Positions 10,971 to 51,888 are shown, numbered from the stretch's first letter. The stretch: DNA of 64,000 bases from an uncultured Candidatus Saccharibacteria bacterium (GCA_964610335.1 CAZSVP010000001.1:351442-415441), one strand, 5' to 3'. Notes: generated from the sequence alone by a model not told the origin. Translations and numbers: made by a program.

Positions 10971-11020
10971 TAAGTATAGCGCTTTTTGTCAGTATACTGT
11001 GAAGCTGCTAAAGTAAATAT

Positions 11021-14085: not shown

Positions 14086-14477
14086 GGGGCTGACTAGCTT
14101 CGACATGTGGATCTTGAAATGTACTGGCAAACCGGGTTGAGCTACACGTTAGCTGGCTCACCAAAACTTAAGTGCCAAATCACTTATGCGCGACCTCGTC
14201 AATGCCGTTAAGGTTAACGAGCTAGCACCAGCTTACGCTTAATTGCGCTAAGCCGTTCAATACCTGACATCAGATAGGGTTGCGAGCGACACTTTTCTGA
14301 TTGCTCTTGGTTAGTCCCTCCATGGCCAAGCTAAGCTGAAGACAGGGGAAGCGGAGTACTGTTTTTGTTTGATCTCTCGATGTACTTTGCTTTTAAAACC
14401 AATCAGATCTGACTATGTTTGTAGAAGGTACATTCAATGCCATGTGGACGAGGGTGCGATTCCCTCCAGCTCCACCA
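14086..14477 (+). ncRNA. ssrA: transfer-messenger RNA (tmRNA, one-piece)
   Basis: 5' end GGGGCUGACUAGCUUCGACAUGUGG matches the conserved tmRNA acceptor/D-arm. 3' end GGACGAGGGUGCGAUUCCCUCCAGCUCCACCA matches the tRNA-like T-arm and CCA tail. An internal tag reading frame ends ...NELAPAYA followed by TAA at 14240-14242. Confidence 0.85.
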
Positions 14478-30488: not shown

Positions 30489-33224
30489 ATGAAAGTAAGT
30501 ATTCAATCGCTCAATCAATATCTTAAGCCAAAGCTTAGTACAACAGAGATAACTGTAGCCATAGAGCGAACAGAAATCGAACTAGAGGAGGTCATAACAG
30601 GTCCAACATGGGATAAGTCAATTGTTGTAGCTCGTGTACTTGAAGTACTCCCACACCCCAATGCTGATCGACTCAAATTGGTACTGGTAAGTGATGGTAA
30701 GAAAACATACACTGTTGTGTGCGGAGCTCCAAATGTAAAAGCTGAAATGACGGTGGCTTTGGCACAGCTAGGATCTGTTATGCCAGATGGAACAAATATA
30801 GAAGCAGCTACTATTCGTGGCGAGAAAAGTAACGGTATGCTTTGTTCGGCAGCTGAGTTAGGTATTAGCGATGGCCATAGTGGAATTATGGAGCTTTCCC
30901 CTGACCTACTCTTAGGACAATCATTGTGCGACATAGAGAATTTTGGCGATATCTTAGACATTAAGACCCACCCAAATCGTTGGGACACTATGTCTTTGGT
31001 CGGTTTGGCGCGGGAAATTGCTGCCAATGCATCTAAACCTGTAAAACTGTTAGAGCCAAAATTACAGCAGGTGAGTTATAGTGACAAGGGGAAGGTTAAA
31101 TTAACAAGCACCGCAGAGTGCAGTCATTTTGTGAGTGCGAAGCTGAGTGTCGATAATTCTGGGAAAAGCCCGCAATGGCTTGTGGATAACTTGGAATCCA
31201 ATGGGCTACGTAGTATTAATCCAGTTGTAGATATATCAAACTACGTAATGCTTGAATATGGTCAGCCAAGCCACAGTTATGATGCCGCAAAACTCAATGG
31301 CCAACTATGTGTACGTAGGGCCAAAAAAGCTGAATCACTTCCCTGCTTGGATGGAAAAACTAGGCAGCTTACTGAAGACGACATAGTGATAGCTGATAAT
31401 GCGTCGGTAGTGGGTATTGCAGGTGTAATGGGAGGTGCAACAACCGAAACAAAACCGAACACTAGCGAAATTGTTATGGAGGTAGCGGTATTTGATAAAA
31501 CACTGGTGCGCAAGACAGCACAACGTCATGGTATTCGTACTGAAGCAAGTGCACGATTTGAGCGAGGTTTACCACTCCCCTTGCAGACGCTAGCTTTCGA
31601 GCGCTTAGTTTATTTGTTGCAAGAAATATGCGCAGCCAAATTTGTCGATGGGCCATTTGACCAATTGTATGCTTGGCCATGGATACAATATGTCGGCTTG
31701 AGACTGAGATATGCTGAGAGTGTGTTGGGTATGGATCTTGATGAGAAGATCGTGATCGATGGTTTGCGAAGGCGTGGATTTGAGGTCGAACACTTTTCAC
31801 TCAGTAGTGAAGCTAAGGAGCATATAGGTAAGCCGTACAAGTATGGCGCTAGTTTTCGGATTGATGGTGAGGCTGCATTTGACTGTTCGTATTTGACGGA
31901 ACGCATATATTGCAAGATAGGGATACAGATCGGGCATACGGCTGCGCAACAGTACAAGAACGGGTCAGAAATCGATGATTCAAATCTAAAACCTGGTGAT
32001 TTATTGTTTGTGAAGGGTGGTATTAAAGACACCAAGCTTGCCAAAGCTCGCAACAATATTGGGCATGTTGGCATGTATATGGGCGGCAACAAAGTTCTTG
32101 AAGCAAAACAATCAGTTGGAAAGGTGGCCTTCACTACCCTTTCTGAGTTTCAGAAGCGAAAAGGCTACATAGGTGCACGACGGTTTGTTCCCAGCTTTAA
32201 TCATATCCTTGCTGTGGTGGTGCCATGGTGGCGCGCAGATATAGTGCTTGAAGAAGATCTAATAGAAGAGGCTGCCAAAATTGTAGGTTACGATAGTATG
32301 CCCGACACACTATCACTGTTGCCACCCACACCCACTGGCGATCATCAACAACTTCTGCGACTACTAGAGCTAAAGAAACAGTTGGTAGCAATCGGAGCCC
32401 AGGAAGTTGCTACTTACTCATTTGTGAGCGTTGATGCACTGAAACTGGTTGGTGGAGATGTGGTGAATGCTATAGAAATTGTCAATCCACTGCAAAAAGA
32501 GCAGGCGCTAATAAGGACAGAAACCCTACCAAGCCATTTGCAGGTGGTGCGCAATAACCAAAGTGATATGGACCAAAGCATCTTTTTTGAGATTACCAAA
32601 CTTCAAACTTGGTCCAAAAAACCTTCAATTGTAGACGAACAGTGGTACTTGGCTATAACCGCTATGGGTGAACAAAGCTATGCTCAGGTGAAGGCAGTGG
32701 TAGATTCGTTGGAATCATTTTGGGGGATGGAGTTTCTGGTAAGCCGTTGTAGCATACCTACACTGATTGAGGGTCGGCAGGCTAGTTTGGGCGTAGATGG
32801 CAAACCAGTAGGGACTATTGGGCAGATCCACCCCACTGTGCTCACGGAATTTGGTATCAAAAGAGAAGTATCACATGCGCAGGTATGCCTGAGTAAGATG
32901 CTTGAGACTGAGATATTGAAAACAGTGCAACCACTTCCCTCTTATCCTTTGATTGTGCGATCATTGACTGTTGAATGCAATGAAGCTTGTTTGTGGCAGC
33001 CAATCCAAAAATCCTTACAAAAGCATGATTTTGTTGTTTCGGCTGAGTATGTTGGCGAATACCAAGACGAACAACTAGCCAAACAATCAACCAAGCGTAT
33101 CAGCATGAAGCTATTGATGGACTTGGGTGACAAGGCAGAACAAGTTGCTATAGACCAAGCACTGTCCAAAGCAATTGATGGATTGCGTAAGCTCACTGGT
33201 ATGTCTGATTTGAAAATTTGCTAG
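30489..33224 (+). CDS. pheT: phenylalanine--tRNA ligase beta subunit carrying an internal NlpC/P60-like domain insertion
   Basis: tRNA-binding OB domain, B3/4, B5, the PWWRADI...EEDLIEEAAKIVGYD block and an FDX-like C-terminus. Between the B5 domain and the PWWRADI block (about nt 31800-32190) there is an extra segment with NlpC/P60 Cys-His signatures (FDCSYLTERIY ... NIGHVGMYMGGNKVLEA). Confidence 0.85.
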   Translation: MKVSIQSLNQYLKPKLSTTEITVAIERTEIELEEVITGPTWDKSIVVARVLEVLPHPNADRLKLVLVSDGKKTYTVVCGAPNVKAEMTVALAQLGSVMPDGTNIEAATIRGEKSNGMLCSAAELGISDGHSGIMELSPDLLLGQSLCDIENFGDILDIKTHPNRWDTMSLVGLAREIAANASKPVKLLEPKLQQVSYSDKGKVKLTSTAECSHFVSAKLSVDNSGKSPQWLVDNLESNGLRSINPVVDISNYVMLEYGQPSHSYDAAKLNGQLCVRRAKKAESLPCLDGKTRQLTEDDIVIADNASVVGIAGVMGGATTETKPNTSEIVMEVAVFDKTLVRKTAQRHGIRTEASARFERGLPLPLQTLAFERLVYLLQEICAAKFVDGPFDQLYAWPWIQYVGLRLRYAESVLGMDLDEKIVIDGLRRRGFEVEHFSLSSEAKEHIGKPYKYGASFRIDGEAAFDCSYLTERIYCKIGIQIGHTAAQQYKNGSEIDDSNLKPGDLLFVKGGIKDTKLAKARNNIGHVGMYMGGNKVLEAKQSVGKVAFTTLSEFQKRKGYIGARRFVPSFNHILAVVVPWWRADIVLEEDLIEEAAKIVGYDSMPDTLSLLPPTPTGDHQQLLRLLELKKQLVAIGAQEVATYSFVSVDALKLVGGDVVNAIEIVNPLQKEQALIRTETLPSHLQVVRNNQSDMDQSIFFEITKLQTWSKKPSIVDEQWYLAITAMGEQSYAQVKAVVDSLESFWGMEFLVSRCSIPTLIEGRQASLGVDGKPVGTIGQIHPTVLTEFGIKREVSHAQVCLSKMLETEILKTVQPLPSYPLIVRSLTVECNEACLWQPIQKSLQKHDFVVSAEYVGEYQDEQLAKQSTKRISMKLLMDLGDKAEQVAIDQALSKAIDGLRKLTGMSDLKIC

Positions 33225-33261: not shown

Positions 33262-34749
33262 ATGACGGAGTCGACTAAATATAAACATTTTTTGAGTTTG
33301 CCCAAAGGACTGAGTAAATCTGGCCAAAAACCAAATGCTTATGCCCGTATTGGGTTTGTGTTGGTTGGTATAGTTTTGGCTGTGTTAAGCCTAAATACTT
33401 TGGTTGCAGCAGTGACAGAGGGGGTGATATATCCGGGGGTTAGTGTGGCCGGCACCGACCTGAGCTTCAAAACTCGAGCTCAGGCATTGGAAATCCTACG
33501 TCAGAAGAGTGGTAGTCGCAGTGTAACCGTCAAGATCGGACAAGACAAAAGTATCACGGCCGGCAATAATGATTTTGGGGCAAGTTACGACCCTATTGAG
33601 ACGGTAGAGGTTGCCTATAGCGTTGGTCGAAACAGCCCTATAGCGTTACTAGGAATGTTGGATGCTCAGAAGAGAGGCACTCTAGGATTGGCATACCGCT
33701 TTGATCAAGCTCAACTTAAGAAGTTTGCTGCTGAGGCGGTAGGTAGCAATGGCAAAGATCCGGTCAATGCGACCATTGCAATTACTGATGGGGTGGCGGC
33801 AGTAGTTGATGATCAGCCAGGCGTACAGCTCGACCCCAATAAGTTGGCAGCGGTTCTTACTCAGGCAATGAGTGATGGTCAAGATACTGTGGTAAGCATT
33901 GAGCCAAGCCCTGTAGCTGCCCCTATCCAGAGGCAACAGGCGGCAGCAGTGTTAGGTAAAGTCGAAGACTTACTGAATCGTTCTATAACACTCAATTATC
34001 AAGGCAAGGTGTTTAGCCCAAGTAAAGTCGATATTGGGCACTGGCTGATATTTCAACCAGTTGTGGACGGAGGAAACAAAGAGTTACGTGTAGAGATTTC
34101 TCGAGCCCAGATACAAGGCTATCTACAATCAGTTGCCAATCAGGTAGATGTAGCTCCCACGAATCGCAAAGTGACAGTACTTAACGGTCAAGAGTCTGAA
34201 ACTCAGCCCGGCAAGGACGGCTCGGCAATCAATCAGCAATCAGCCACTGATGCTATTTATACCGCTATGTCAAACAATCAAAACACCACAGTTGCCTTGA
34301 CGAGTGGCCCAATTCCATTCAAAACTGAGTACAAACGTGTTGGTGGTGCAATCGGTGGCTTGGACGCGGCACAGTATATCGAGATCAACTTGAGCACGCA
34401 GCAGCTGTTTGCATGGCAAAATGGGCAAGTCGTGTTTACGTCTCCTGTGGTGACTGGCAAAGACTCTGCGCCCACGGTCACCGGTGTGTTTGCTATCTAT
34501 GCCAAAGAGCGCAATCGCTATCTCAATGGTGCTCCATATGGGTATGATTACAATGTATTTGTAAGCTATTGGATGCCGTTCGTGGGAGGCTATGGCTTAC
34601 ATGATGCTACCTGGCGACCACCTTCTTGGTTTGGCACACAGGCATTTCACTACAATGGGAGCCATGGCTGTGTAAATATGCTGACTGGTGCTGCGGCATT
34701 CATATGGAGTTGGGCTCCGGTTGGCACACCAGTATGGGTTCATAACTAG
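33262..34749 (+). CDS. L,D-transpeptidase (YkuD domain) with an N-terminal membrane anchor
   Basis: C-terminal YkuD catalytic motif (YNGSHGCVNM), an N-terminal TM helix, and a middle peptidoglycan-binding-like region. Confidence 0.8.
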   Translation: MTESTKYKHFLSLPKGLSKSGQKPNAYARIGFVLVGIVLAVLSLNTLVAAVTEGVIYPGVSVAGTDLSFKTRAQALEILRQKSGSRSVTVKIGQDKSITAGNNDFGASYDPIETVEVAYSVGRNSPIALLGMLDAQKRGTLGLAYRFDQAQLKKFAAEAVGSNGKDPVNATIAITDGVAAVVDDQPGVQLDPNKLAAVLTQAMSDGQDTVVSIEPSPVAAPIQRQQAAAVLGKVEDLLNRSITLNYQGKVFSPSKVDIGHWLIFQPVVDGGNKELRVEISRAQIQGYLQSVANQVDVAPTNRKVTVLNGQESETQPGKDGSAINQQSATDAIYTAMSNNQNTTVALTSGPIPFKTEYKRVGGAIGGLDAAQYIEINLSTQQLFAWQNGQVVFTSPVVTGKDSAPTVTGVFAIYAKERNRYLNGAPYGYDYNVFVSYWMPFVGGYGLHDATWRPPSWFGTQAFHYNGSHGCVNMLTGAAAFIWSWAPVGTPVWVHN

Positions 34750-34751
34750 AT

Positions 34752-34780
34752 TTTTACGCATTCAGCATAACTGGTATAAT
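34752..34780 (+). promoter_or_regulatory. promoter with an extended -10 upstream of the 34.8-57 kb surface/ATPase block
   Basis: TTTTAC, a 17-nt spacer, TGgTATAAT, and an AGGAG RBS 7 nt before the ATG at 34801. Confidence 0.45.
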
Positions 34781-34800
34781 AGTAGATTAGGAGTATTCAG

Positions 34801-35238
34801 ATGCCCCCAGTAACGCCTGCTGAAAAAAAACCAAATCAACCACCTGTAGAAAGGCAGCCAGCAGCGCTTCCTACTGAACAGTTGCCCAAAACAGAGCAGC
34901 AGCCTTCTGGTGCAGAACAGGCACCAGCTGCCGCCGAGCAACCGCAGAGCGCACCGGCTGCACCAGTCCAACAGCCTGCCCAGATAGCACAGCCAGTCCA
35001 ACAGCCTGTGTCGCTGCAAACACCGCCGGACGATCCAGTGGCTGCTGTGATTCAACAAAAGACCGCCAATCTTACTGCCGATGATGTCGACTTGATTGAG
35101 AAAGAATGGGTTGATGTAGTTGATGATACCATTGAGAAAACCAAGGACGATCCAGAAATTGAAGAACGTGCTCAACAGGAGCTCAACAAGGCATACCTCA
35201 AAAAGCGCTTTAATCTAGATGTGGACTCAAGTGAATGA
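34801..35238 (+). CDS. Pro/Gln/Ala-rich acidic protein (hypothetical)
   Basis: 145 aa. PAxxQP-type low-complexity N-terminus and an acidic C-terminus. Overlaps the start of the downstream ATPase by 4 nt. Confidence 0.5.
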   Translation: MPPVTPAEKKPNQPPVERQPAALPTEQLPKTEQQPSGAEQAPAAAEQPQSAPAAPVQQPAQIAQPVQQPVSLQTPPDDPVAAVIQQKTANLTADDVDLIEKEWVDVVDDTIEKTKDDPEIEERAQQELNKAYLKKRFNLDVDSSE

Positions 35239-37739
35239 ATGATTTTGTGATATTTATGAGCATATTGTTCGCGTTGTTCGTGATAGCAGTTATATTTGTG
35301 GCGTTTTTTATATATCGCAAGATAGTGCGACGCAGTAAGCAGGTTGAGCGCTCACTCAAATTCGTACCGCTTCTTATCAAACTACCCCCGCAAGAAGTCA
35401 ATGAAGCCCAGAATCGTGATGAACGCGAGATGATGAAAGAAAATATTTCCAAGGCTGAGCAAGTTTTCAATTTGCTATCTGGAATAGTAAGTGAGAAAGC
35501 TGAGGTTTACGGTCGTCGCTACATTAGTTTTGAAATTATCGCTGAGGCTAAGAGGATATATTTCTATGTCTCTGTGCCGGCTAGTCTGATTTCAACTGTA
35601 TCGAAGGCTTTGGCTGCCGGTTATCCAGGTGTCCAAGTGATCCGTAAGGAAGAAATCAACTTATTTTCACAGGTTAGCAAGATTGCTGGTGTAGCAGGTG
35701 GTGAGCTCAAGCTGGCCAAAGATAGCATCATGCCGATCAATACTTACAAAAACGCCGAACGTGACGCGATGTCTGGTATGTTGGCGGGTTTGTCGAACCT
35801 TTCTGAGGGTGATGCTGCAGCTATTCAGATGTTGGTCCGTCCTGCCCCCTATCGCTGGGTAAAACGAGCCCACAGGCGTGCCAAATACTACTATACAAAC
35901 AAGAAGACTGGCTTTGCCCCCAAGGCCATGGACTTTGCTGGCGAAGCAATTCGCTCACCGCTTGGTACCAAAGATACTGAACAGAAAGATTACGTACCAA
36001 ACGAGCTAGACAAGAAGAAGGCTGAACTAGTAGAAGAGAAGGTAAAAGTACCTGCTTTTGAAACCACCATACGACTAGTTGCGAGTTCAGACGACCCATC
36101 ACGATCCAAACTAATTTTGCAAGATATGCTGCTGGGGTTTGCTCAGCTAGCCCAAAACGATGCCAACCGGTTTAAATTTGTCAAAGCTGATTCACCACAG
36201 GAGCTTGCGACCAACTTTATTTTTCGGTTTTTCAAGGAGAATACCTTCTTTGCTCATCAGATGATACTTAACTCCACTGAGTTGGCAACAATATTTCATC
36301 TACCAAGCGAACTACTCGACTTGGCTACGCCGATTGAGCGCAAGGGTAGCAAGGAGGTTCCTGCACCGACTGGGATGCCAGCTGCTGGGCTGTTGTTGGG
36401 AACCAATGTCTATCGGGCTACCCAAACGCCTATATATTTGAGTGAAAACGACCGTCGACGACACCTGTACTTCATTGGTCAAACTGGTACAGGTAAATCA
36501 ACCTTCTTGGAGAACTTGATGCTGCAAGATGCCATAGCCGGTCGAGGCTTTGCATTTATCGACCCGCATGGCGACACTGCTGAAAAGATGCTTGGCATGA
36601 TACCACCCGAACGTGCCGAGGATGTAATTTACTTTAGTCCAGGTGACACCGAGGTACCGCTTGGGTTCAATATGATGGAATACGACCCAGATAAGCCAGA
36701 GCAAAAAGACTTCTTGATCCAAGAAGCTATTCAGATGCTTTACAAACTCTATGATCCTCAGCATCAGGGTATCATCGGTCCACGCTATGAACACTGGTTT
36801 CGTAACGCTGCATTGACTGTTATGGCTGATCCCGAGGGTGGTACTTTTATAGAAATACCCAAGGTGTTTACTGACGATGAATATCTCAAGAAGAAGTTCC
36901 GATTTGTGACAGACCCAACCGTCCAAGACTTTTGGACTGGCGAGATGGCACAGACCGATGCCCATAGCAAGAGTGAGATGCTTGGCTGGTTTGTGAGTAA
37001 GTTTGGTGCTTTTGCCAACAACGAGATTATGCGTAACATCATTGGTCAGAAGCACTCGGCATTTAAGTTTCGCGATGTGATGGATAGTAACAAGATCTTG
37101 CTTGTGAACCTCAGTAAGGGTTTGCTTGGTGATCTCAATGCCAAGTTGCTTGGTATGATCATGGTGATTAAGTTCCAGATGGCAGCTATGAGCCGAGCTG
37201 ATACGCCAGAAGAAGAGCGACCAGATTTCAGTGTATATGTCGATGAGTTTCAAAACTTCAGTACTGATAGCTTTGCTACTATTCTTTCTGAGGCCCGCAA
37301 ATACCATCTCAACTTGATTGTTGCCAATCAGTTTATCTCTCAGCTCGACGAACAAGTAAGAGATGCCGTGTTTGGCAATGTTGGCTCTCTAATATCATTT
37401 AGAGTTGGTGCCGACGATGCTGAGTATATGGAGAAGCAATTCCAGCCCCAGTTTGATAAACACGATCTCATAAATATACCCAACTTCAAGGTTGTGTCTA
37501 AGATCATGGCCAACAATGTACCGACCACACCGTTCTCGATGGACTGTCTACCTGCGATAGGTACACCCAATGCTGAGATTTTGCAGGCTATGAAAGACTT
37601 GTCACGTAGTAAGTATGGGCGTCCTAAGAGCGAGGTAGCGGCTGAGATTATTCATAGTCTCGACTCTGGTAGCTATGGTGATCCTCAGGTGGGTCAAACA
37701 GTTTCTACTGGTATGGGACGAGACAATTCACATAACTAG
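35235..37739 (+). CDS. type IV secretion-type P-loop ATPase (VirB4/VirD4/TraG superfamily) with an N-terminal TM anchor
   Basis: N-terminal TM helix. Walker A FIGQTGTGKST followed by IDPHGD. Walker B VYVDEFQNF. C-terminal ANQFISQL...FRVGADDAEY block typical of conjugative coupling/VirB4 ATPases. Confidence 0.7.
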   Translation: MNDFVIFMSILFALFVIAVIFVAFFIYRKIVRRSKQVERSLKFVPLLIKLPPQEVNEAQNRDEREMMKENISKAEQVFNLLSGIVSEKAEVYGRRYISFEIIAEAKRIYFYVSVPASLISTVSKALAAGYPGVQVIRKEEINLFSQVSKIAGVAGGELKLAKDSIMPINTYKNAERDAMSGMLAGLSNLSEGDAAAIQMLVRPAPYRWVKRAHRRAKYYYTNKKTGFAPKAMDFAGEAIRSPLGTKDTEQKDYVPNELDKKKAELVEEKVKVPAFETTIRLVASSDDPSRSKLILQDMLLGFAQLAQNDANRFKFVKADSPQELATNFIFRFFKENTFFAHQMILNSTELATIFHLPSELLDLATPIERKGSKEVPAPTGMPAAGLLLGTNVYRATQTPIYLSENDRRRHLYFIGQTGTGKSTFLENLMLQDAIAGRGFAFIDPHGDTAEKMLGMIPPERAEDVIYFSPGDTEVPLGFNMMEYDPDKPEQKDFLIQEAIQMLYKLYDPQHQGIIGPRYEHWFRNAALTVMADPEGGTFIEIPKVFTDDEYLKKKFRFVTDPTVQDFWTGEMAQTDAHSKSEMLGWFVSKFGAFANNEIMRNIIGQKHSAFKFRDVMDSNKILLVNLSKGLLGDLNAKLLGMIMVIKFQMAAMSRADTPEEERPDFSVYVDEFQNFSTDSFATILSEARKYHLNLIVANQFISQLDEQVRDAVFGNVGSLISFRVGADDAEYMEKQFQPQFDKHDLINIPNFKVVSKIMANNVPTTPFSMDCLPAIGTPNAEILQAMKDLSRSKYGRPKSEVAAEIIHSLDSGSYGDPQVGQTVSTGMGRDNSHN

Positions 37740-37810
37740 AGTAGATGCTACTTGCAACAGAGTAGTGATTCGTACTACAATCGATAGCAAATGATAATGA
37801 GGGTACCAAC

Positions 37811-40132
37811 TTGATAAACTTCCAGGATATTGTAACTTCTGTTTCGACCGGCAAACTTTCGCCAGGTAGAATTGGCTACTATGTAAAACGTCTCGCGGCC
37901 GAGACTGCTACCCGCAGGATAGCCAGCATTTTTATTATCGGTCTTCTGGTATTCCAGATTTTTACATTCTTGGCCCCACCAAAGCCAAGCTTTGCGGCTA
38001 GTCCTGGGTTTGACTTAATATCTGGTGCGCCATTTAGTAAAGATTCTCTTATAAGTGCTGTTTGGGATCAGAACCGTGATGGTATTCAACAGGTCTTCAA
38101 CAGGCTAGGTATTTCAAGGCAGAAGATGGAAGCTGCTGGTGTTGGTCCTTGTGCAGCAGAGGGTGACAATTGGATATCGATGGGGCGCAGCCAAGATGGT
38201 GCTGGTAGCTCAGTCCAGTGGCAAGAGGGTATCTGGGTTGGATCATCTATAAACAGATGGGGTAATGCTTATACAAACGATGGTAACTGTATCCAGGCGC
38301 TGCGTGGGCTAGGAGACAAAGTTTATGTATCCGATGGCGGACCTGGTATACCAGCTGGTTGGTATGAATGGGGCGTATTGCTCGATTGCGGTAATATTGT
38401 GCTTAAACCTACTGAGCCACCTCCTAATCCCAAGAGCTTTAGTTGCCAGTCTGTAAACATATCTGCAACAAGTGTAGTAGTAGGACAACCAGTTGTGGTG
38501 GCAGGTTATGCTCATGGTGAGAACGTCTCACAAGGTGAGAGAGTAGACATGGTATACGGATCATATAGTGGAGGTAATCTGCTCGCTACTCAGTCTTCGG
38601 CTGGCGTAGGCCCCCCAGACGGTAACAACAACTTTATAGATGATAGCGGTAAGTCATTTACTTTTAACGATCCAGGAACTTACGAAATAGCGTTAGTGGT
38701 ATTCTACGATGTCGACGGTACAAAATACTTCGCATCAGGTAGTGGAAATGGCGAATGTAAAAGAACTATTACTGTTACACCTCAGCCTAAGCCGCATACA
38801 CTAGTTTGTGGAGGCTTAGATATGGTAAATAGTGGCGGTAACTTCACTTATCAAGCACCGCATACACCGCTCATCAAAGGTACTGCATTGCAAGAAGGTG
38901 ATTCTGGTCCAGAAGTGTATGCCAAACGATTTCTATACCTGTTGCTCAAGGAAGTGCCAAGTGGAGGGTCTGTGCAACATGGTGGGAAGCAGTACATAGA
39001 GATCAATGCCAACAATCGCATACTGCACTCATATCCAACACAGAATACTCGTGTAGATCCGCTTGCTAGTGCACCCAACCCAGCGGCCTTTGCCGCAACC
39101 CAGTTTGCCCAGAATAGCGCTGGAAGTTTCTTGATCCTGCTGCGAGTATCTTCTGAAAACTCTGGCGACAACAACTTCGCTCCAGACACAAACAGTTGTG
39201 CCGTGCCGTTTGTAGTAACCCCTCAACCCAAGGACATCATGTGTGTTGACTTGACTGCTAGCCCACTCACTGGCGACACAGTACCAGTAGAGGTAACATT
39301 CAATGCCAAAGGTGGTGCACAAAACACTACGATCAAGGAATACCAATTTGACTTCGGTGATGGTAACAAACAAACAGTAACAAGTGGCAAGTTTGCTGAA
39401 ACGCTCAAACACACTTATCAAAGTGGTGGCAAATATACTGCTAAGGTTACAGTTGTGGGCACCGACCCGGGTGTGACATCGAGCAAGCCAAGCTGTACTG
39501 TGCAACTTAAGTTTGAACAACACGTGTTCCGCAAGACAGTCAAGAATCTAACAATTCTTACACAAGATGGTAAACCAACCGATGCCAATGGCGCGACTGC
39601 ACGGCCAGGAGATAAGCTAACCTACACTATAGGCATTGCCAACATAGGAAGTGCTCCTATAAAAGACTATGTGTTTAAGGACGACATATCTGATATATCA
39701 CTTTATGCTGATGTAATAGACAAAGGTGGTGCTGAGCTCTCGGTAGAAGCAACTCACGTGTTACTAACCTGGCCAGCGGTGGATATCCCAGTTACGACCG
39801 ATCCGAACAATCCTACTTATGTTACCAAAAGCTTTACTGTACAGGTAAAAGATCCAGTTCCAACCAATGCACAGAAGCCTACTGACAATAAGAACTATGA
39901 TTGTCAGATGGAAGACCAGTTTGAAGGTAATATAGTGATCACACCAATTAGTGTAAACCCAGCTAAGCGGCTAGAGTGTGTTGTGGCTCCTCTGCCACAG
40001 ACTGGTGCTGCCACTAGCCTAATAGTGATGGGATTGCTTGCTGCCCTATCAGTATTCTTACTACTACGCAATCGACTTATGAAACGCGAACTTGATCTAT
40101 TGGAAACACTAAATGAAGGAGCTAAAAGCTAA
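37811..40132 (+). CDS. LPxTG-anchored cell-surface protein with PKD-like and DUF11-like repeat domains
   Basis: N-terminal signal/TM helix. PKD-like motif YQFDFGDGNKQ...HTYQSGGKYTAKVTV. DUF11-like motif GDKLTYTIGIANIGSAPIKDY. C-terminal LPQTG, a hydrophobic helix and an RNRLMKR tail (sortase sorting signal). TTG start inferred. Confidence 0.8.
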   Translation: MINFQDIVTSVSTGKLSPGRIGYYVKRLAAETATRRIASIFIIGLLVFQIFTFLAPPKPSFAASPGFDLISGAPFSKDSLISAVWDQNRDGIQQVFNRLGISRQKMEAAGVGPCAAEGDNWISMGRSQDGAGSSVQWQEGIWVGSSINRWGNAYTNDGNCIQALRGLGDKVYVSDGGPGIPAGWYEWGVLLDCGNIVLKPTEPPPNPKSFSCQSVNISATSVVVGQPVVVAGYAHGENVSQGERVDMVYGSYSGGNLLATQSSAGVGPPDGNNNFIDDSGKSFTFNDPGTYEIALVVFYDVDGTKYFASGSGNGECKRTITVTPQPKPHTLVCGGLDMVNSGGNFTYQAPHTPLIKGTALQEGDSGPEVYAKRFLYLLLKEVPSGGSVQHGGKQYIEINANNRILHSYPTQNTRVDPLASAPNPAAFAATQFAQNSAGSFLILLRVSSENSGDNNFAPDTNSCAVPFVVTPQPKDIMCVDLTASPLTGDTVPVEVTFNAKGGAQNTTIKEYQFDFGDGNKQTVTSGKFAETLKHTYQSGGKYTAKVTVVGTDPGVTSSKPSCTVQLKFEQHVFRKTVKNLTILTQDGKPTDANGATARPGDKLTYTIGIANIGSAPIKDYVFKDDISDISLYADVIDKGGAELSVEATHVLLTWPAVDIPVTTDPNNPTYVTKSFTVQVKDPVPTNAQKPTDNKNYDCQMEDQFEGNIVITPISVNPAKRLECVVAPLPQTGAATSLIVMGLLAALSVFLLLRNRLMKRELDLLETLNEGAKS

Positions 40133-40758
40133 TGGCGGACAACGAAGAAAAACTGATTGATTCAGAGGAATCAGAAGCGAAAGTAGCCAAGCGTAGTTCC
40201 GAATCTCTTGAGCGCAATAAATCTGCCGAGAAGTCAAAGTCAGAGATGAAGCGCGACGAGGCCGACCTAGCTCGTAAAGGTGAGGCTGCTGAGCGTAAGA
40301 TAAAAGCAGAGTTGGAGAAAAAAGAGGCTGACCTAGCTCGCAAACAGGAGAAGTCCAAAGAAGCTGAAGAAAAGAAAGCAGAGAAGGAAAAAGAGCTTTC
40401 TGAGAAGAAGGAACCCAAGGGACCACTAACCAAGACAGAGAAAAAGCGAGTTTACAAGAAGGAATTGAGCAAGATTCAATCTCAACTACCTGCCGGGAGC
40501 CGGGCTTTCTCCAAGGTAGTACACAATCCAGTAGTTGAAACTGTTAGCAACGCTGCTGAGAAAACTGTATTGCGTCCATCCGTGCTAATAGGTGGCGCAG
40601 TAGTAGGTATAGGTCTAGGTATAGTAATCTACGTAGCAGCACGTGTTTATGGCTATATCATCCCCAACTGGATGCTGTTAGCACTACTTGTTATAGGTGG
40701 TGTGCTGGGTGTATTGATTGAAATGGTTCTCAAGCTTGCCGGCCGATCTAAATCGTAG
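40132..40758 (+). CDS. Lys/Glu-rich coiled-coil protein with a C-terminal membrane hairpin
   Basis: About 120 aa of KE-rich predicted coiled coil, then two TM helices (GGAVVGIGLGIVIYVAA ... LLALLVIGGVLGVLIEMVLKLAG). The second helix contains a buried Glu. Confidence 0.6.
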   Translation: MADNEEKLIDSEESEAKVAKRSSESLERNKSAEKSKSEMKRDEADLARKGEAAERKIKAELEKKEADLARKQEKSKEAEEKKAEKEKELSEKKEPKGPLTKTEKKRVYKKELSKIQSQLPAGSRAFSKVVHNPVVETVSNAAEKTVLRPSVLIGGAVVGIGLGIVIYVAARVYGYIIPNWMLLALLVIGGVLGVLIEMVLKLAGRSKS

Positions 40759-40814
40759 TGATTGAGTGCTGACATACCTAGCCAATTGAGCATAAAACGT
40801 GTAGCATAAGTAGT

Positions 40815-41669
40815 ATGCGTGACGCGATACGGGGTTCACTAAAAAAGGTGTTCCGAGGTTTTCATAGTTGGACGGCAGCTATTGTGGCTACCTTGTGTTT
40901 TGGGTTGCTTAGCTTACCCGCTCTGGCAGCCTATGTATCTCAAGGCTATACTACAAAAAGTTCAATACCGGCTGGCTCAATCGTGGCTGTGACAAGAGAT
41001 GATCAAACAGTGGTTGAACTAGCATCACTAGGTAGTGAGAACCCAATTGTGGGTGTGGTAAGTACCGTCAACCAAGGAGTTGTGTCGGTCAATCCAAGCA
41101 GTAGCAATACCCAGGTAATTAGCTCGGGTACTGCCAAAATACTCGCTAGCGACATCAATGGCAAAATCAATCCTGGCGATAGTCTGACGCTGTCACCCAT
41201 TGACGGGGTTGCGATGAAGGCTACCGCCAGCGGCAGCTTGGTAGGGGTGGCTCGCGACAGCAGTGATCAGCTTGAGAATCGAGTGTCACGCCAAATGACC
41301 GACAACACTGGTAAGATTCAGAGTTACAGTATTGGTCTACTCAATAGCGATGTGCAATTGGGCCAGTTTCAGCCGACAGCGAGCCAGAGCGGTTCCAATG
41401 TAGTGACGGGCTTGCAGGCTCTCAGCTCGAATCTTGCTGGCAAGAAACTTACGCCAGTACGAGCTGCTGCTGCGTTTGCCTTGGTGATAATCGCTACAGT
41501 GGCGGCTATGGTAGTGTTGTTCTCGGCAGTTACCTCAAGCATACGCTCAATTGGACGTAACCCACTTGCCAAGCACGCTGTACTGCGTAGTCTGGGCCAA
41601 GTAATACTGGCAGTAGTAATAATAATATTTGCGGCATTCGCCGGCGTGTACATAATAATAGGTGTGTGA
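40815..41669 (+). CDS. membrane protein with an N-terminal signal-anchor, a Ser/Thr/Val-rich ectodomain and a C-terminal hairpin bearing an RNP loop
   Basis: The C-terminal roughly 75 aa (AFALVIIATVAAMVVLFSAV..SIGRNPLAKH..LGQVILAVVIIIFAAFAGVYIIIGV) resemble an ATP-synthase c-subunit hairpin (R-N/Q-P polar loop) but lack a TM2 carboxylate. 4-nt overlap with the alpha-like gene. Confidence 0.55.
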   Translation: MRDAIRGSLKKVFRGFHSWTAAIVATLCFGLLSLPALAAYVSQGYTTKSSIPAGSIVAVTRDDQTVVELASLGSENPIVGVVSTVNQGVVSVNPSSSNTQVISSGTAKILASDINGKINPGDSLTLSPIDGVAMKATASGSLVGVARDSSDQLENRVSRQMTDNTGKIQSYSIGLLNSDVQLGQFQPTASQSGSNVVTGLQALSSNLAGKKLTPVRAAAAFALVIIATVAAMVVLFSAVTSSIRSIGRNPLAKHAVLRSLGQVILAVVIIIFAAFAGVYIIIGV

Positions 41670-43057
41670 TGGAACAGCAAGAATCAGCTAAAATCAAAGG
41701 TATTAATGGATACGCACTCGATGTAGAGCCGATTGATGGTATTCACTTACACGCTACTGTTAGCACTAACTCCGAGCAGCCCGGGCTGGTATATAACGCT
41801 AGTGAAAAAAACATGCGAGTGTTGTCGCTGGAAAGCAGTGAGGTAATAGCTGCTGATAGTTTGCAGCCGCAATTTAGAAGTTTGCAAGTAGCAGTAGAAG
41901 AGAACACTCTCGGCAAGACCCACGCTGTTGGTGAACTATTGCAAAAACAAACCGTCAGTAAATCAGATAAAGTGCATTTACGCCCGGTATTCGGCGACGC
42001 ATTGCCTCTCAACAATCGGGCAGTTGTCAACGAGCAGTTGGAAACTGGTGTTGTGGTAGTGGATTCCCTATTCCCTATCGTAAAAGGTCAGCGTATAGCG
42101 GTGATTGGTGATGCCAAAGCTGGTAAGTCATCTTTTTTGACACAGACTGCGATACACCACCTTACTACTACTAAATCAATAGCTGTATTTGTGGAGATTG
42201 CTAAGCGTAAGCAGGATGTCGAAAGGCTAGCCTTTCGACTCTACCAGGCAGGCGTGATTGATAGAGCAGTAATAGTAGTGGCTGATGCACTCGACAACAT
42301 TGTATTGCAGTACTTGGCACCATTTGTTGGCTGTGCGGTGGCCGAACATTTTTGGGACCAGGGACAAGATGTGCTGTTGGTATATGATGATCTCGCCACG
42401 CATGCCAAAGTATATCGTGAGATGTCATTGCAGCTAGGTCAGCAGCCCGGTCGCGAAAGCTATCCAGCAGACCTGTTTTATATTCACGCTAGTTTACTGG
42501 AGCGTGCCGGTAGGCGAGCCGATACCGGCAAGAGCTTGACTGCTTTCGCAGTGGGGACTACCCCCAACGATGACCTGACCGGGTATTTCCCTACCAATAT
42601 GATATCTACTTCGGATGGGCAGCTTGTATTTGACCTCAAGACTATGCGTTCTGGGATTCGTCCGGCGCTAAATATCGGTTTGTCAGTAAGCCGTGTGGGT
42701 GGAAGAGCTCAAAGCGCCTACTATCAAAATATGTCAGAGCAAATACTACAGTCATTATCCAACTACTCGGCTGTTGAAACTTACGCACGGTTTAATACTA
42801 AGCTGTCTGTAACATCACAGAAGAACTTGGCTATTGGCAAGAAACTGTTTGAATTGTTTTTGCAAGATCAAGCTAGTAGTTTTACATTGGCAATGCAGCG
42901 GGTGATGCTAGAAACAGTTTTCATGAGTGAGCAACCAGAAAAACTCAATATCGCTTGGCTCAAAGACGTGATTGCTGATGTGGTAAAGCCCGAGACAATA
43001 GAGAAAGATTTTCGAGCGCTGGCCAAAGACTTACTTAAGAGTAATCCGGTGGTATAG
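41666..43057 (+). CDS. F1-ATPase alpha-subunit-like protein (divergent)
   Basis: GQRIAVIGDAKAGKSS (the alpha-type non-catalytic P-loop). The block LQYLAPFVGCAVAEHFWDQGQDVLLVYDDLATHAKVYREMSLQLGQQPGRESYPADLFYIHASLLERAGR and IRPALNIGLSVSRVGGRAQ align with canonical AtpA. Confidence 0.8.
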   Translation: MMEQQESAKIKGINGYALDVEPIDGIHLHATVSTNSEQPGLVYNASEKNMRVLSLESSEVIAADSLQPQFRSLQVAVEENTLGKTHAVGELLQKQTVSKSDKVHLRPVFGDALPLNNRAVVNEQLETGVVVVDSLFPIVKGQRIAVIGDAKAGKSSFLTQTAIHHLTTTKSIAVFVEIAKRKQDVERLAFRLYQAGVIDRAVIVVADALDNIVLQYLAPFVGCAVAEHFWDQGQDVLLVYDDLATHAKVYREMSLQLGQQPGRESYPADLFYIHASLLERAGRRADTGKSLTAFAVGTTPNDDLTGYFPTNMISTSDGQLVFDLKTMRSGIRPALNIGLSVSRVGGRAQSAYYQNMSEQILQSLSNYSAVETYARFNTKLSVTSQKNLAIGKKLFELFLQDQASSFTLAMQRVMLETVFMSEQPEKLNIAWLKDVIADVVKPETIEKDFRALAKDLLKSNPVV

Positions 43058-43059
43058 CT

Positions 43060-45215
<2,156 letters not shown>

Positions 45216-45216
45216 T

Positions 45217-45468
45217 ATGGAAGAAGAACGATTCTTGGTAAAAGTATTCTCGCCTTTTGAAGTGTATTATGAGGGCGAAGCATTTAGCTTGTCGGCCACC
45301 AACTCACAGGGGCCATTTGATGTATTGCCTGAGCATGCCAACTTCATAAGTCTGGTTAGCCGTGGCAATGTTACTATTGATACTCCATTTGGGAAGCGAC
45401 AATTTGCTCTAGAGCGCGGCATACTGCGTATCCGTAGCGGTCAAGCGACACTTTTTGCCAACGTATAA
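45217..45468 (+). CDS. F1-ATPase epsilon-subunit-like protein (N-terminal beta-sandwich only)
   Basis: 83 aa. FLVKVFSPFEVYYEGEAFSLSATNSQGPFDVLPEHANFISLV matches the epsilon N-domain pattern. No C-terminal helical hairpin. Confidence 0.5.
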   Translation: MEEERFLVKVFSPFEVYYEGEAFSLSATNSQGPFDVLPEHANFISLVSRGNVTIDTPFGKRQFALERGILRIRSGQATLFANV

Positions 45469-45480
45469 GATGTATCTCGG

Positions 45481-45509
45481 TTGCATTGACTAACCATAAG
45501 CGTTACAAT
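45481..45509 (+). promoter_or_regulatory. sigma70-like promoter upstream of the first fibre-protein gene
   Basis: TTGCAT, a 17-nt spacer and TACAAT. RBS GAGGGAAAAGGG, then GTG at 45543. Confidence 0.45.
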
Positions 45510-45542
45510 TGTTGTAAGAAAACACACAAGTGAGGGAAAAGG

Positions 45543-47882
45543 GTGGACGGACAAACAAACACGCAAAATGTTTCTGTTGAACAGGCTACGTTTTCTGGTC
45601 AGTTGCAAAACCAATCTAGTGGGGCAACGGCTTCAGTTGATAATACTGAGATAGCCAGACTACATCGCCGTAATCGTTTTTTTCAAGCGCTTTGGATAGC
45701 GGCGGGTATTTTATTACTTCTGCTATTTGCGACGGCGTCAATATTGATATGGCGAAATCGCTCGCAAGTATCCCAGCTGACCAATGCATCGGAGCGCTAT
45801 AAGCCTGTAAATCTCAATCTTTCTGGCCAGCCATTGCAAACTGGTTTGCAAGGTGTACTGGCGGTCAATGGCGATATTACGGCTACTGGTACTGTTAGCG
45901 CTGCTAACTTGCAGGGTAGTGGTAGCGGTATTACTGACTTGCAGGCCAACAACATCGTCGGTGTACTTCAACCAGGTCAGCTTGATCCATTTATAGCCTA
46001 CACCAACAAGAACTTCCAGGCCTTCACAGGTACCAATCAAGTATTTCGTAACAGTTCCAACTCAGTATCGGCATTTTCTGTCCAAAACGCATCGGCCGCA
46101 CCAGTTTTGAGCGTGAGTACGGCCAGTAACTTTGTAGGAGTTAATACAAGTGTGCCATCTGTTACAGGCCTAAGCCTGGAGGTGAATGGTACTGCCAAAG
46201 TTGATAACTATCTATTGGTGGGGGCACAGTCAACACCAAACACATCAATTCTTGATACTGGTCCACTATTCTCAAACGATGATATACAAAGAATCCTAGC
46301 CGTTCAACAAATATCATCAAACAATCCAAATGCAAACAGCATATTTGTGGGTACTGCCAATGAGCTACTAGCCAACCCCCAATACGATCCCGTTATTCTG
46401 GGCTCTTTTCTTGGGTTTACTACCGTAGCTGGTGGTAACAAAAATATATATGCAGGCAGCTATTCTGCTTTGCAAACAGATAAGACAAATTCCAAGGATT
46501 TCTATCTAAATGGTGGTGTTATGAACTCAGTTACTCATTCAGGTAGCGGAACCGTATTTATGCAAGCTGCTCAACTCAATACTGTTGCCAATCTCGGTGC
46601 GGGGGAAATCGCTTATGCTTTTGGTAGTGCGACTATCCCAGTTACTTACAATGGCCCAGGTACTCCTGTAAACTATATGCAATTCTACTCAGGCAATACT
46701 ATTGTTGATCCTCAAGATCCCTCACTTGGTTTTCTAGGTTTTCCCACCATATACCAAGCTGGCTCAATTGGTCGACAAGTAGGTATAGATATCCAATATC
46801 AACAAAGCGGTACAATAGGAAGCGCCAATCTAGTATCTGAAGGATATTTGAGTAAGAATTACTTTGAAGGGAATGTGTCTATTGGCTCTTGTGCAGCCAA
46901 TCTTACACCGAGTTCAATTCTTGGGACTACTGCTTGTATAACTGGTCTCGATCCAATTCCAGGGGGTAATAAGTTGTCAGTGAACACTTCGGCGCCTTCG
47001 ACTGCCTCAGCTCACATTAATACTGCTGTAGCATCAGATAAGGCGTTGGTGGTCAAAGGAGTTACCAGCCAAACAGGTAATCTTACTGAGTGGCAAAACT
47101 CATCTGGGACAGCACTTAGTAGAGTAACTGCCGACGGGTCATTTAATATTGGCTCAGGCGCGCCGACTAATCGGCTTAGTGTTGTTGATACTTCCGACGA
47201 TACAGTAGCTAACTTCACAGGTTTTACCCAAACCTGTACCGTAGATACATCAGGCGCTGGTGGCTGGTCTTGTTCTTCAGACGAGCGTCTCAAAGAGAAT
47301 ATCGTGAAATTGGATGGTGGCCTCGATACGATTATGCAACTGCGAGGGGTCACATATAACTTCAAGAGCAATCCAGACGGAGACGCAATTGCTGGATTTG
47401 TTGCTCAGGAGGTTGAGAAAATACTGCCTGGGTTAGTTGCTACCGGAGCTGATGGTTATAAATCTCTCAATAAGGACGGTCTAATCCCCTACCTTGTCAG
47501 TGCTATCCAGGATCAACAAAAACAAATTGATACTCTTAAGAATCCGGCCGGAGGAGTAAGTGTGGATGTGCTCAAGACTCTCGCCGACAGCAAAGCCGTG
47601 GAATTTGGTGGTGACTTGACTGTGAATGGTAGCGTGATTATTAAGGGTACATTGGCTGGCAATGTCAATACTCGTGGTACGGTAGTGATTCCGGCTGGCC
47701 AGACATCTGGTGGCTATAGTTTTACTACTGCGTACTCGAAGACTCCAAATATAGTAGTAAGCCCAAGCTCTGATACCGGTGGTCGGTATTGGCTTAAGAG
47801 TAAATCTGCTAGTGGATTTACAGTAGAGCTCGAAGCCGCTCAAGCTACAGATGTAAAATTCGATTGGCAAGCCCAAGAATAG
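45543..47882 (+). CDS. membrane-anchored tail-fibre-like surface protein with a C-terminal intramolecular-chaperone (peptidase S74-like) domain, paralog 1
   Basis: N-terminal signal-anchor (FFQALWIAAGILLLLLFATASILIW). Long Gly/Asn/Thr/Ser-rich repeats. C-terminal SCSSDERLKENIVKLDGGLDTIMQLRGVTYNFK...GFVAQEVEKILPGLV, matching the self-cleaving chaperone domain of phage tail fibres/tailspikes. Confidence 0.8.
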   Translation: MDGQTNTQNVSVEQATFSGQLQNQSSGATASVDNTEIARLHRRNRFFQALWIAAGILLLLLFATASILIWRNRSQVSQLTNASERYKPVNLNLSGQPLQTGLQGVLAVNGDITATGTVSAANLQGSGSGITDLQANNIVGVLQPGQLDPFIAYTNKNFQAFTGTNQVFRNSSNSVSAFSVQNASAAPVLSVSTASNFVGVNTSVPSVTGLSLEVNGTAKVDNYLLVGAQSTPNTSILDTGPLFSNDDIQRILAVQQISSNNPNANSIFVGTANELLANPQYDPVILGSFLGFTTVAGGNKNIYAGSYSALQTDKTNSKDFYLNGGVMNSVTHSGSGTVFMQAAQLNTVANLGAGEIAYAFGSATIPVTYNGPGTPVNYMQFYSGNTIVDPQDPSLGFLGFPTIYQAGSIGRQVGIDIQYQQSGTIGSANLVSEGYLSKNYFEGNVSIGSCAANLTPSSILGTTACITGLDPIPGGNKLSVNTSAPSTASAHINTAVASDKALVVKGVTSQTGNLTEWQNSSGTALSRVTADGSFNIGSGAPTNRLSVVDTSDDTVANFTGFTQTCTVDTSGAGGWSCSSDERLKENIVKLDGGLDTIMQLRGVTYNFKSNPDGDAIAGFVAQEVEKILPGLVATGADGYKSLNKDGLIPYLVSAIQDQQKQIDTLKNPAGGVSVDVLKTLADSKAVEFGGDLTVNGSVIIKGTLAGNVNTRGTVVIPAGQTSGGYSFTTAYSKTPNIVVSPSSDTGGRYWLKSKSASGFTVELEAAQATDVKFDWQAQE

Positions 47883-47904: not shown

Positions 47905-48504
47905 TTATACTACTAACATAACAGCTTTGGAAGAGCGTGGAACAACAGAGTAATACAACACAACAACCCCAATACGAGGAAGTAGATAAGAAGTCACATT
48001 GGCTCATCTGGCTATTAGTCGGTTTAGCAGCCCTCTTTCTTGTAATCATAATTATCTTACGTGGTCTCTGTACTGATGTATGGTATATCCGGATGCTTGG
48101 TCTCAATGATCGCTGGTGCCCATCACCTGCTAGTAGTTTGGTCGGTAAGACAGATCTTGCTGATGGTAGTGTGACTGGTAAGAAGGTAGCCTCTGAGACT
48201 ATTACTGTCAGCAACCTTTCTCAACCCATCCAGCAGTTCATTACCAACACCGAGCAAACACTTCAGCAAATAACTCAACAAATCTCTCAGGTATCCAATG
48301 TCCCTGGCCCTGCTGGCCCAGTCGGTGCCACTGGTTTGCAAGGTGCTACCGGTCCAACTGGAGCTACCGGTGCAACTGGTGCCACTGGCCCTCCCGGACC
48401 AGCTGAGCCGATTACTTCCAATGTTCTCAACTCAGCTGGCAACTCTCTAGACTCTACTGTCAATGGAGTGGGCTCTAATGTAGTGAGTATTATTAATTCG
48501 AATA
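47905..48504 (+). repeat. direct repeat copy A (about 600 bp, near-identical to 51289-51888): leader plus the 5' 190 codons of a fibre paralog
   Basis: Direct reading shows matching sequence from atactactaacataacagctttggaagagcgtggaacaac... through ...gtgagtattattaattcgaata at an offset of 3384 bp. Confidence 0.85.
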
Positions 48505-51288: not shown

Positions 51289-51888
51289 TTATACTACTAA
51301 CATAACAGCTTTGGAAGAGCGTGGAACAACAGAGTAATACAACACAACAACCCCAATACGAGGAAGTAGATAAGAAGTCACATTGGCTCATCTGGCTATT
51401 AGTCGGTTTAGCAGCCCTCTTTCTTGTAATCATAATTATCTTACGTGGTCTCTGTACTGATGTATGGTATATCCGGATGCTTGGTCTCAATGATCGCTGG
51501 TGCCCATCACCTGCTAGTAGTTTGGTCGGTAAGACAGATCTTGCTGATGGTAGTGTGACTGGTAAGAAGGTAGCCTCTGAGACTATTACTGTCAGCAACC
51601 TTTCTCAACCCATCCAGCAGTTCATTACCAACACCGAGCAAACACTTCAGCAAATAACTCAACAAATCTCTCAGGTATCCAATGTCCCTGGCCCTGCTGG
51701 CCCAGTCGGTGCCACTGGTTTGCAAGGTGCTACCGGTCCAACTGGAGCTACCGGTGCAACTGGTGCCACTGGCCCTCCCGGACCAGCTGAGCCGATTACT
51801 TCCAATGTTCTCAACTCAGCTGGCAACTCTCTAGACTCTACTGTCAATGGAGTGGGCTCTAATGTAGTGAGTATTATTAATTCGAATA
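51289..51888 (+). repeat. direct repeat copy B (about 600 bp)
   Basis: See copy A. The two copies diverge immediately after aattcgaata. Confidence 0.85.

Follow-up and report, generated by a model that had tools for sequence, protein, structure and literature searches.

The closest described counterparts of the system reported here are the F1-like X0 ATPases of Mycoplasma, which comprise Type 3, associated with MIB-MIP and represented by the MSC_0618/0619 family, and Type 2, the G1-ATPase of M. mobile (PMC3369863, PMC12994834, PMC11864180). The MIB-MIP antibody-cleavage system depends on Type 3 (PMC12994834), and Type 2 drives the gliding of M. mobile and incorporates phosphoglycerate kinase (PMC11864180). 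The mycoplasma seven-gene cluster encodes Protein 1 with 12 transmembrane (TM) helices, the cytosolic Protein 2, gamma-like and epsilon-like proteins, Protein 5, and alpha-like and beta-like proteins, with neither b nor delta; Protein 5 has a signal peptide as well as two C-terminal TM helices (PMC3369863). Here we analysed a 64,000-nt stretch of DNA from an uncultured Candidatus Saccharibacteria bacterium (GCA_964610335.1 CAZSVP010000001.1:351442-415441; the whole stretch is hereafter called the window), in which genes for alpha-, gamma-, beta- and epsilon-like subunits follow an open reading frame (ORF), ORF B (40815-41669, +, 284 aa), whose product ends in a hairpin related to subunit c of F-type ATP synthases. 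ORF A (40132-40758, +, 208 aa) lies immediately upstream of ORF B. A sequence-only reading had presented both ORFs as c-subunit-like hairpins fused to soluble domains and as possible new membrane partners of an F1-like head. Both are real and belong to conserved families, and one of the two, ORF B, found at all 12 complete F1-like clusters, stood as a candidate partner; ORF A did not. The closest homologues of ORF A and ORF B are from Candidatus Saccharibacteria/Saccharimonadales, and the window resembles a genome of Saccharibacteria, that is, of the candidate phyla radiation (CPR). No earlier description of this CPR system was found in the literature searched on Saccharibacteria, Patescibacteria and Woesebacteria (F1-like, ATP synthase, DUF8128).

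An exhaustive profile search placed 1,003 cluster representatives in the ORF B family at E <= 1e-30, rising to 6,251 at E <= 1e-10, and a word-indexed search yielded 97 homologues; column statistics and the AlphaFold2 (AF2) model were based on 96 family sequences. The model (mean predicted local distance difference test score, pLDDT, 87.7) consists of a signal-type N-terminal helix, a beta domain (residues 41-185; 40935-41369, +), an amphipathic helix (195-208) and a C-terminal TM hairpin (214-248/250-283; 41454-41663, +). The N-terminal helix belongs to a putative signal peptide (residues 1-38; 40815-40928, +), whose hydrophobic segment (21-39) closes with A-L-A before a further A, with cleavage predicted between the last two alanines. 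Subunit c has its N-terminus emerging at the outer face of the membrane. Since the N-terminal part of ORF B is predicted to be exported, its two-helix hairpin would be oriented as in subunit c, with the N-terminus outside, the loop in the cytoplasm and the C-terminus outside.

The hairpin was compared with a profile of 54 genuine c subunits from canonical atp operons recovered by the beta-side genome scan. In hhalign, the two were matched with Prob 83-84% (P = 8-9e-6, 63-66 columns) and with the loop in register, while the reversed alignment gave P = 0.23 and 30 column shuffles gave P = 0.067-0.81. When PDB sequences were searched with the whole-family profile, the sole match below E = 0.1 was a c subunit of Chloroflexus (9itj_H), with an alignment that covers TM1, the loop (SIGRNP vs AIGRNP) and the end of TM2 and that places a hydrophobic residue opposite the canonical Glu. 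A reciprocal search with an ORF B hidden Markov model (HMM) of 7,791 ORFs from 89 sources (88 loci and the window) retrieved, beyond the family itself, canonical c subunits only, the best being that of a Saccharibacteria locus, L019 (E = 3.5e-6). Foldseek superposed the hairpin on the c subunits of Chloroflexus, Bacillus PS3 and mycobacteria with root-mean-square deviations of 1.3-1.6 A and target TM-scores of 0.7-0.88. The cytoplasmic loop, I246-G-R-N-P250 (41550-41564, +), is invariant in 96/96 homologues; the loops of canonical CPR c subunits read SIGRNPE (L019, L013) and AIGRNPN (L012), with MGRNPE at L055, and the shared IGRNP core points to an origin of ORF B from a CPR-type c. Judging from these comparisons, homology of the hairpin to F-type subunit c is detectable, in agreement with what the sequence-only reading had recognised in the R-N-P loop.

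That reading had also noted the lack of a carboxylate in TM2, and indeed D or E occurs at residues 263-282 in 0/96 sequences. The position aligned with the canonical one is V, L, F or I, and the sole acidic option near TM2 is a Q/E at the cytoplasmic boundary, six residues off the canonical site. ORF B further differs from subunit c in lacking the GxGxGxG motif of TM1, in falling below the Pfam threshold, in having about 210 extra N-terminal residues (signal peptide, exported beta domain and amphipathic helix) and in having no partner a subunit in its loci. As the TM2 acid and the GxGxGxG motif are missing and Pfam ATP-synt_C is barely reached, ORF B appears to be derived from subunit c yet not to be a functional ion-binding c subunit.

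The N-terminal part, earlier described as an exported Ser/Thr/Val-rich domain, fits that description, with 36% Ser/Thr/Val at residues 40-212 and a confidently modelled beta domain. In Pfam, XM1_gp53_minor_capsid (PF23982) was matched by 37/96 members (best E = 1e-6) and Phage_cement_2 (PF09956) by 15/96, while the ORF B of the window itself reached neither at E < 1. A Foldseek search of PDB aligned the domain with capsid decoration proteins of phages T1, Sf11, FCWL1 and TW1 (prob about 1.0), and the predicted viral structures in BFVD gave 34 matches at E <= 1e-3, down to 8e-9, including preneck appendage proteins as well as large phage proteins matched in their N-terminal parts, of which two carry a tail or tail-fibre annotation. 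Residues 41-185 are thus of the phage decoration/cement type in fold and in profile, resembling the phage decoration/cement proteins and appendage barrels in fold and weakly in sequence. Unlike phage decoration proteins, ORF B is a cellular protein, exported and anchored in the membrane through a c-type hairpin, and no close relative of it was encoded in the viral contigs searched. Neither ORF A nor ORF B gave any match in PHROGs or PADLOC, and NCBIfam gave only chance-level matches to them (E 0.04-0.05, far below cutoffs).

To place ORF B in its gene context, loci were read from homologues of ORF B or ORF A (ten loci), from the beta side (two) and from the gamma side (two). The genome scan with the beta-like protein was filled by canonical atpD, and among the matches listed only L009 and L010 were F1-like. 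In 12/12 complete clusters (window, L001, L003, L004, L006-L010, L090, L171 and L172), which are of Saccharibacteria and of the Woesebacteria type, the F1-like genes are immediately preceded by an ORF B homologue. The usual order is ORF B, b-like, delta-like, alpha, gamma, beta and epsilon. It corresponds to the canonical c-b-delta-alpha-gamma-beta-epsilon arrangement, ORF B standing at the position of atpE (c), so that ORF B shares with CPR-type c both the identical R-N-P loop and a gene position ahead of b-delta-alpha-gamma-beta-epsilon. The gamma-like profile recovered 472 proteins, and many among the matches listed are named Candidatus Woesebacteria or Patescibacteria, which indicates that the system spans at least two CPR lineages. 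The interval between ORF B and the b-like gene is variable: it is 13 nt at L001 (b-like gene at 10857-11552), and it contains a gene for cofactor-independent phosphoglycerate mutase (iPGM) at L003 (10790-12460), L171 (5622-7334) and L172 (5399-7126), that is, in 3/3 Woesebacteria-type loci of that subtype, the insertion being absent in L007.

In the window, genes are closely packed in a single row on the + strand from about 34.8 kb to 45.5 kb, and this row consists of two adjoining modules, module 1 (34801-40758), which ends with ORF A, and module 2 (40815-45468), of which ORF B is the first gene. ORF B is followed in module 2 by genes, all on the + strand, for an alpha-like subunit (41669-43057; Pfam ATP-synt_ab at 1e-61), a gamma-like subunit (43060-43899; Pfam ATP-synt at 1e-24), a beta-like catalytic subunit (43896-45215) and an 83-aa epsilon-like subunit (45217-45468; Pfam ATP-synt_DE_N, beta-sandwich only). 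ORF B and the alpha-like gene overlap, the stop codon of the one sharing bases with the likely ATG of the other (TGATG at 41667-41671). As a scan of 34500-46000 for promoter and terminator consensus sequences gave sites no more numerous than in shuffled sequences, the operon boundaries rest on overlaps and spacing alone.

The beta-like proteins retain Walker A (GxxGxGKT), the GERxRE motif and the Walker B Asp, all invariant across seven clusters. Their identity is 32-81% with one another and 34-45% with canonical betas, while canonical betas, Saccharibacterial ones included, average 67% mutual identity. In a neighbour-joining (NJ) tree rooted on an F1-like sequence, 76 canonical betas, including Saccharibacterial ones, formed a clade that excludes all ten F1-like betas; a midpoint-rooted NJ tree of beta was uninformative because of long branches. 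Against NCBIfam, the alpha-like protein of the window scored 288 with atpA (cutoff 484) and the beta-like protein 377 with atpD (cutoff 463). All equivalog models stayed below their cutoffs, including the mycoplasma models MSC_0618/0619 and MMOB1660/1670, which score no better than the canonical ones, and no mycoplasma model was found for the gamma-like and epsilon-like proteins among matches at E <= 0.1. The best PDB matches of the beta-like protein were canonical bacterial F1 betas (up to 322 bits), with G1-beta of M. mobile at 263 bits. The profile of the gamma-like family aligned end to end with canonical gamma (3e-29), and the C-terminal inhibitory helices of epsilon are absent in 11/11 clusters whose epsilon was read. 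Given the divergence of beta, the NJ clade, the sub-cutoff models and scores nearer to canonical betas than to G1-beta, the F1-like set appears to be an independent, strongly diverged offshoot of bacterial F1Fo and not a relative of the mycoplasma clusters. The alpha-beta-gamma-epsilon set is predicted to be catalytically intact, though diverged.

An HMM of subunit a built from 46 canonical loci matched 53 canonical loci (among them loci of Saccharibacteria, Minisyncoccia and Gottesmanbacteria) and 0/15 ORF B/F1-like loci, and a canonical c subunit was likewise found in none of these 15 loci. Canonical CPR operons keep a beside c. The locus in the window is not a canonical F1Fo operon, as it contains no subunit a, no carboxylate-bearing c, and no alpha or beta above cutoff. 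Apart from b, no membrane protein other than ORF B is conserved across the F1-like clusters. As to the stator, the delta-like profile matches canonical OSCP/delta, and the b-like protein has an N-terminal TM helix in nine of ten clusters (L003, L006-L010, L090, L171 and L172). The genes for b and delta have been lost in the window, in L004 and in the fragment L093, and the alpha-like subunits of these three are without a short N-terminal extension that is present in the delta-containing lineages. This loss, together with the b-like protein without a TM helix at L001, suggests that some members of the family have a degenerating stator.

ORF A was found to be of a different kind. Charged residues make up 56% of its positions 1-118 (28 K, 26 E), and the AF2 model shows a long helix (12-89, about 80 residues) and a hairpin (149-172/179-207; pLDDT about 90), within which the two segments quoted earlier begin at residues 154 and 182. 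Among its relatives (18 homologues and 153 confirmed metagenome-contig stretches), Glu197 is acidic in 86/86 (E in 79, D in 7). The KE-rich arm and a hairpin with an acidic residue are therefore present as the sequence-only reading had described them, while the likeness to subunit c did not survive: hhalign of the hairpin against c subunits gave Prob 0.2%, the loop has no R-N-P, Pfam gave only chance-level matches to membrane proteins, and Glu197, four residues away from where TM2 ends on the cytoplasmic side, is not at mid-membrane. As the N-terminus is highly charged and has no signal peptide, both termini are probably cytoplasmic and the loop external, which is the reverse of the c-subunit topology.

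In about 70 of 80 metagenome loci, many of them from human-associated samples, a PKD-like gene followed by ORF A is convergent with genes for a DUF8128 ATPase and a small protein, with neither ORF B nor any F1-like gene within reach; the arrangement of PKD, ORF A, ATPase and small protein is repeated at L089. The four-gene module was located in the window (34801-40758) and at L089, L090, L094 and L097-L170. Its genes in the window, all on the + strand, encode a small acidic protein (34801-35238), a membrane-anchored P-loop ATPase of the TraD/VirD4/HerA type (35235-37739; Pfam DUF8128 in its relatives), a PKD-domain surface protein with an LPXTG sorting signal (37811-40132), and ORF A, which is helical, KE-rich and cytoplasmic apart from the TM hairpin at its C-terminus and whose start overlaps the stop of the LPXTG/PKD gene (TAATG at 40130-40134). 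The ATPase gave a full-length match to phrog_5156 (E 4.7e-84) and a match to PADLOC mad8 (2e-17). ORF A adjoins the F1-like operon in few lineages only (window, L004, L090 and L093), and at L090 it precedes ORF B with b-like and delta-like genes also present. Because of the roughly 70 of 80 loci without F1-like genes, the lack of similarity to c and the coexistence with b and delta at L090, ORF A is the fourth gene of a separate, widespread module and not an F-type subunit. Within module 1, ORF A, with both termini inside and a charged helical arm, may partner the TraD/HerA-like ATPase and the sortase-anchored PKD protein.

The earlier suggestion that ORF A resembles a peripheral-stalk b subunit and might partner an F1-like head was accordingly abandoned. 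ORF A shares with F-type b a long charged helical cytoplasmic arm and a membrane anchor, but the anchor is a C-terminal hairpin instead of a single N-terminal TM helix, and the gene is mostly away from F1-like genes instead of between c and delta. It is not a misplaced b subunit: its parts are in reverse order, it lies upstream of ORF B, and true b and delta are present beside it at L090. The idea that a long ORF A accompanies the loss of b and delta was also rejected, as L094 has a 206-aa ORF A without F1 context.

The reading that we favour, and consider reasonably probable, is that module 2 encodes a hydrolysis-dedicated, non-ion-translocating derivative of the F-type ATPase in which ORF B transmits work to the cell surface. 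In F-type ATPases, the foot formed by gamma and epsilon sits on the R-Q/N-P loop of the c ring. ORF B would be the only recognisable membrane rotor component of module 2, would oligomerise in the manner of a c ring, and would offer its IGRNP loop as the docking surface for gamma and epsilon, as in canonical enzymes. ATP hydrolysis by alpha3beta3 would turn gamma-epsilon and the ORF B oligomer, and torque or torsion would cross the membrane to a crown of exported beta domains and from there to structures on the cell surface, which are the likely targets. In most lineages, a membrane-anchored b together with delta would serve as the stator, both of which the window lineage has lost. Because it has neither an a subunit nor an ion-binding site, the complex would be unable to translocate ions, and the truncated epsilon and the missing stator in some lineages argue against synthesis and for hydrolysis.

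Several observations weigh against this reading. TM1 of ORF B has an Ala/Ser/Gly stripe instead of the GxGxGxG packing motif of c rings, and Pfam ATP-synt_C (PF00137) reaches only 2/96 members (E about 0.05). The window lineage is without b, delta or another identified stator, and the b-like protein of L001 has no TM helix, which makes the delivery of torque harder to explain. The ORF B ring, its contact with gamma and epsilon, rotation, the surface target and the function are steps that we infer only. In addition, L002 and L005 carry ORF B with no F1-like gene within 10 kb. L005 corresponds to the neighbourhood of L001 and L008 minus b-to-epsilon, and the genes downstream match those after epsilon in L001 and L008, so that the b-to-epsilon block was apparently lost and ORF B kept; ORF B may therefore have an F1-independent role. 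In L005, two ORF B paralogues (41-490 and 9923-10834) flank a gene of 3,132 aa.

The L002 and L005 loci would be readily accommodated if ORF B were an autonomous surface protein, a phage-derived domain on a hairpin that is merely co-transcribed with an F1-like complex that is soluble or otherwise partnered; the pair of paralogues around the 3,132-aa gene and the recurrence of giant surface proteins as neighbours would fit as well. We regard this as unlikely, since ORF B occupies the atpE position in 12/12 F1-like clusters, its hairpin is specifically c-like with the gamma/epsilon-docking loop invariant in 96/96 sequences, and no other membrane protein except b is conserved across the clusters. 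A different view would hold that the operon encodes an ordinary ion-translocating ATP synthase with ORF B as an unusual functional c, subunit a and perhaps a second c being encoded elsewhere. The canonical order of subunits, the b and delta kept in most lineages and the annotation of gamma as an F0F1 subunit in the sources speak for it, but it must contend with the absence of a TM2 acid in 96 sequences (only the boundary Q/E, six residues off, is available), with the absence of a from 15 loci although canonical CPR operons have a beside c, and with a beta about 40% identical to canonical ones, Saccharibacterial included, and a truncated epsilon; of the explanations considered, it is the least probable.

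Hardly more credible is the recruitment of ORF A as a replacement peripheral stalk in the window lineage devoid of b and delta, with the helix reaching F1 and the hairpin serving as the anchor. ORF A does lie immediately upstream of ORF B in the window, L004 and L093, all lacking b and delta; its helix of about 80 residues has a stalk-like length, and the N-terminal extension of the alpha-like subunit has been lost there. It nevertheless coexists with b and delta at L090, occurs at about 70 loci without F1-like genes, takes its long form outside the F1 context too (L094, 206 aa), and shares its conserved motifs with copies unlinked to F1.

The hydrolysis-dedicated derivative with ORF B as its membrane partner can be extended to a CPR rotary or torsional motor, in which a carboxylate-less c ring with a phage-like crown would drive giant, N-terminally anchored surface proteins or fibres; this extension is speculative, and we think it rather doubtful as it stands. 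At most loci, ORF B has giant (1,100-6,200 aa) proteins rich in Thr, Ser and Gly encoded next to it. They were found at L003 (1-9391, -), L171 (1-4207, -) and L172 (1-3885, -), and also at L002, L005, L001 and L090. At the start of the Woesebacteria-type giants there is a MerR/HTH_17-like DNA-binding motif, an unexpected feature in a presumed surface protein. Among the Saccharibacterial giants, three of four (L002, L005 and L090) have a cytoplasmic tail and one TM helix at the N-terminus, and the one at L001 has a short hydrophobic N-terminus. Downstream of the operon in the window are genes for large membrane-anchored fibre-like proteins (45543-47882, 47937-51269, 51321-54326 and 54379-57036). 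The products of the tandem genes 47937-51269 and 51321-54326 are identical in their first ~190 residues, a GxY collagen-like run among them, and differ thereafter, which suggests a recent duplication or cassette variation. A match to Peptidase_S74 (endosialidase-chaperone) was found in 45543-47882, the sole gene scanned, and its conserved C-terminal region is seen by eye in the tandem pair too.

Other features were recorded in passing. A tmRNA gene is located at 14086-14477 of the window, with the tag peptide AKSLMRDLVNAVKVNELAPAYA. The PheT (phenylalanyl-tRNA synthetase beta chain) of L090 (813-3590) has an NlpC/P60 match in Pfam, and the PheT of the window (30489-33224) is likewise long, with 911 aa.

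Compared with the F1-like X0 ATPases of Mycoplasma, the CPR system likewise has an extra set of alpha-, beta-, gamma- and epsilon-like subunits uncoupled from canonical Fo, and its proposed output is likewise mechanical and not ion pumping, with large surface proteins encoded nearby. ORF B resembles Protein 5 (MMOB1650), compared by architecture only: each has a signal peptide, a part that is exported and, at the C-terminus, two TM helices. A glycolytic enzyme accompanies the motor in both cases, phosphoglycerate kinase in M. mobile and iPGM inside the Woesebacteria-type operons. Unlike the mycoplasma clusters, the CPR clusters contain neither a 12-TM protein nor Protein 2, differ in gene order, and in most cases keep b and delta; their membrane partner is derived from c, whereas the mycoplasma ones are reported not to be homologous to Fo subunits. 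The CPR system thus may be regarded as analogous to the mycoplasma F1-like X0 ATPases, with a probably independent origin.

The CPR case is much more widespread, with at least 1,000 ORF B sequence clusters and 472 gamma-like proteins, and its membrane partner is traceable to subunit c. Annotations of "ATP synthase" in CPR genomes need care, as an alpha/beta/gamma/epsilon set of this kind is not evidence of proton-coupled energy conservation. The ORF A module is common in human-associated Saccharibacteria. A foot of gamma and epsilon on an IGRNP ring that has no ion site and bears exported domains would explain how mechanical work driven by F1 could be done outside the cell. If the motor extension is true, it would be convergent with the gliding motor of Mycoplasma mobile, including the glycolytic enzyme (iPGM) in some operons, and would represent a new cell-surface machine of CPR bacteria for adhesion, movement or host attachment.

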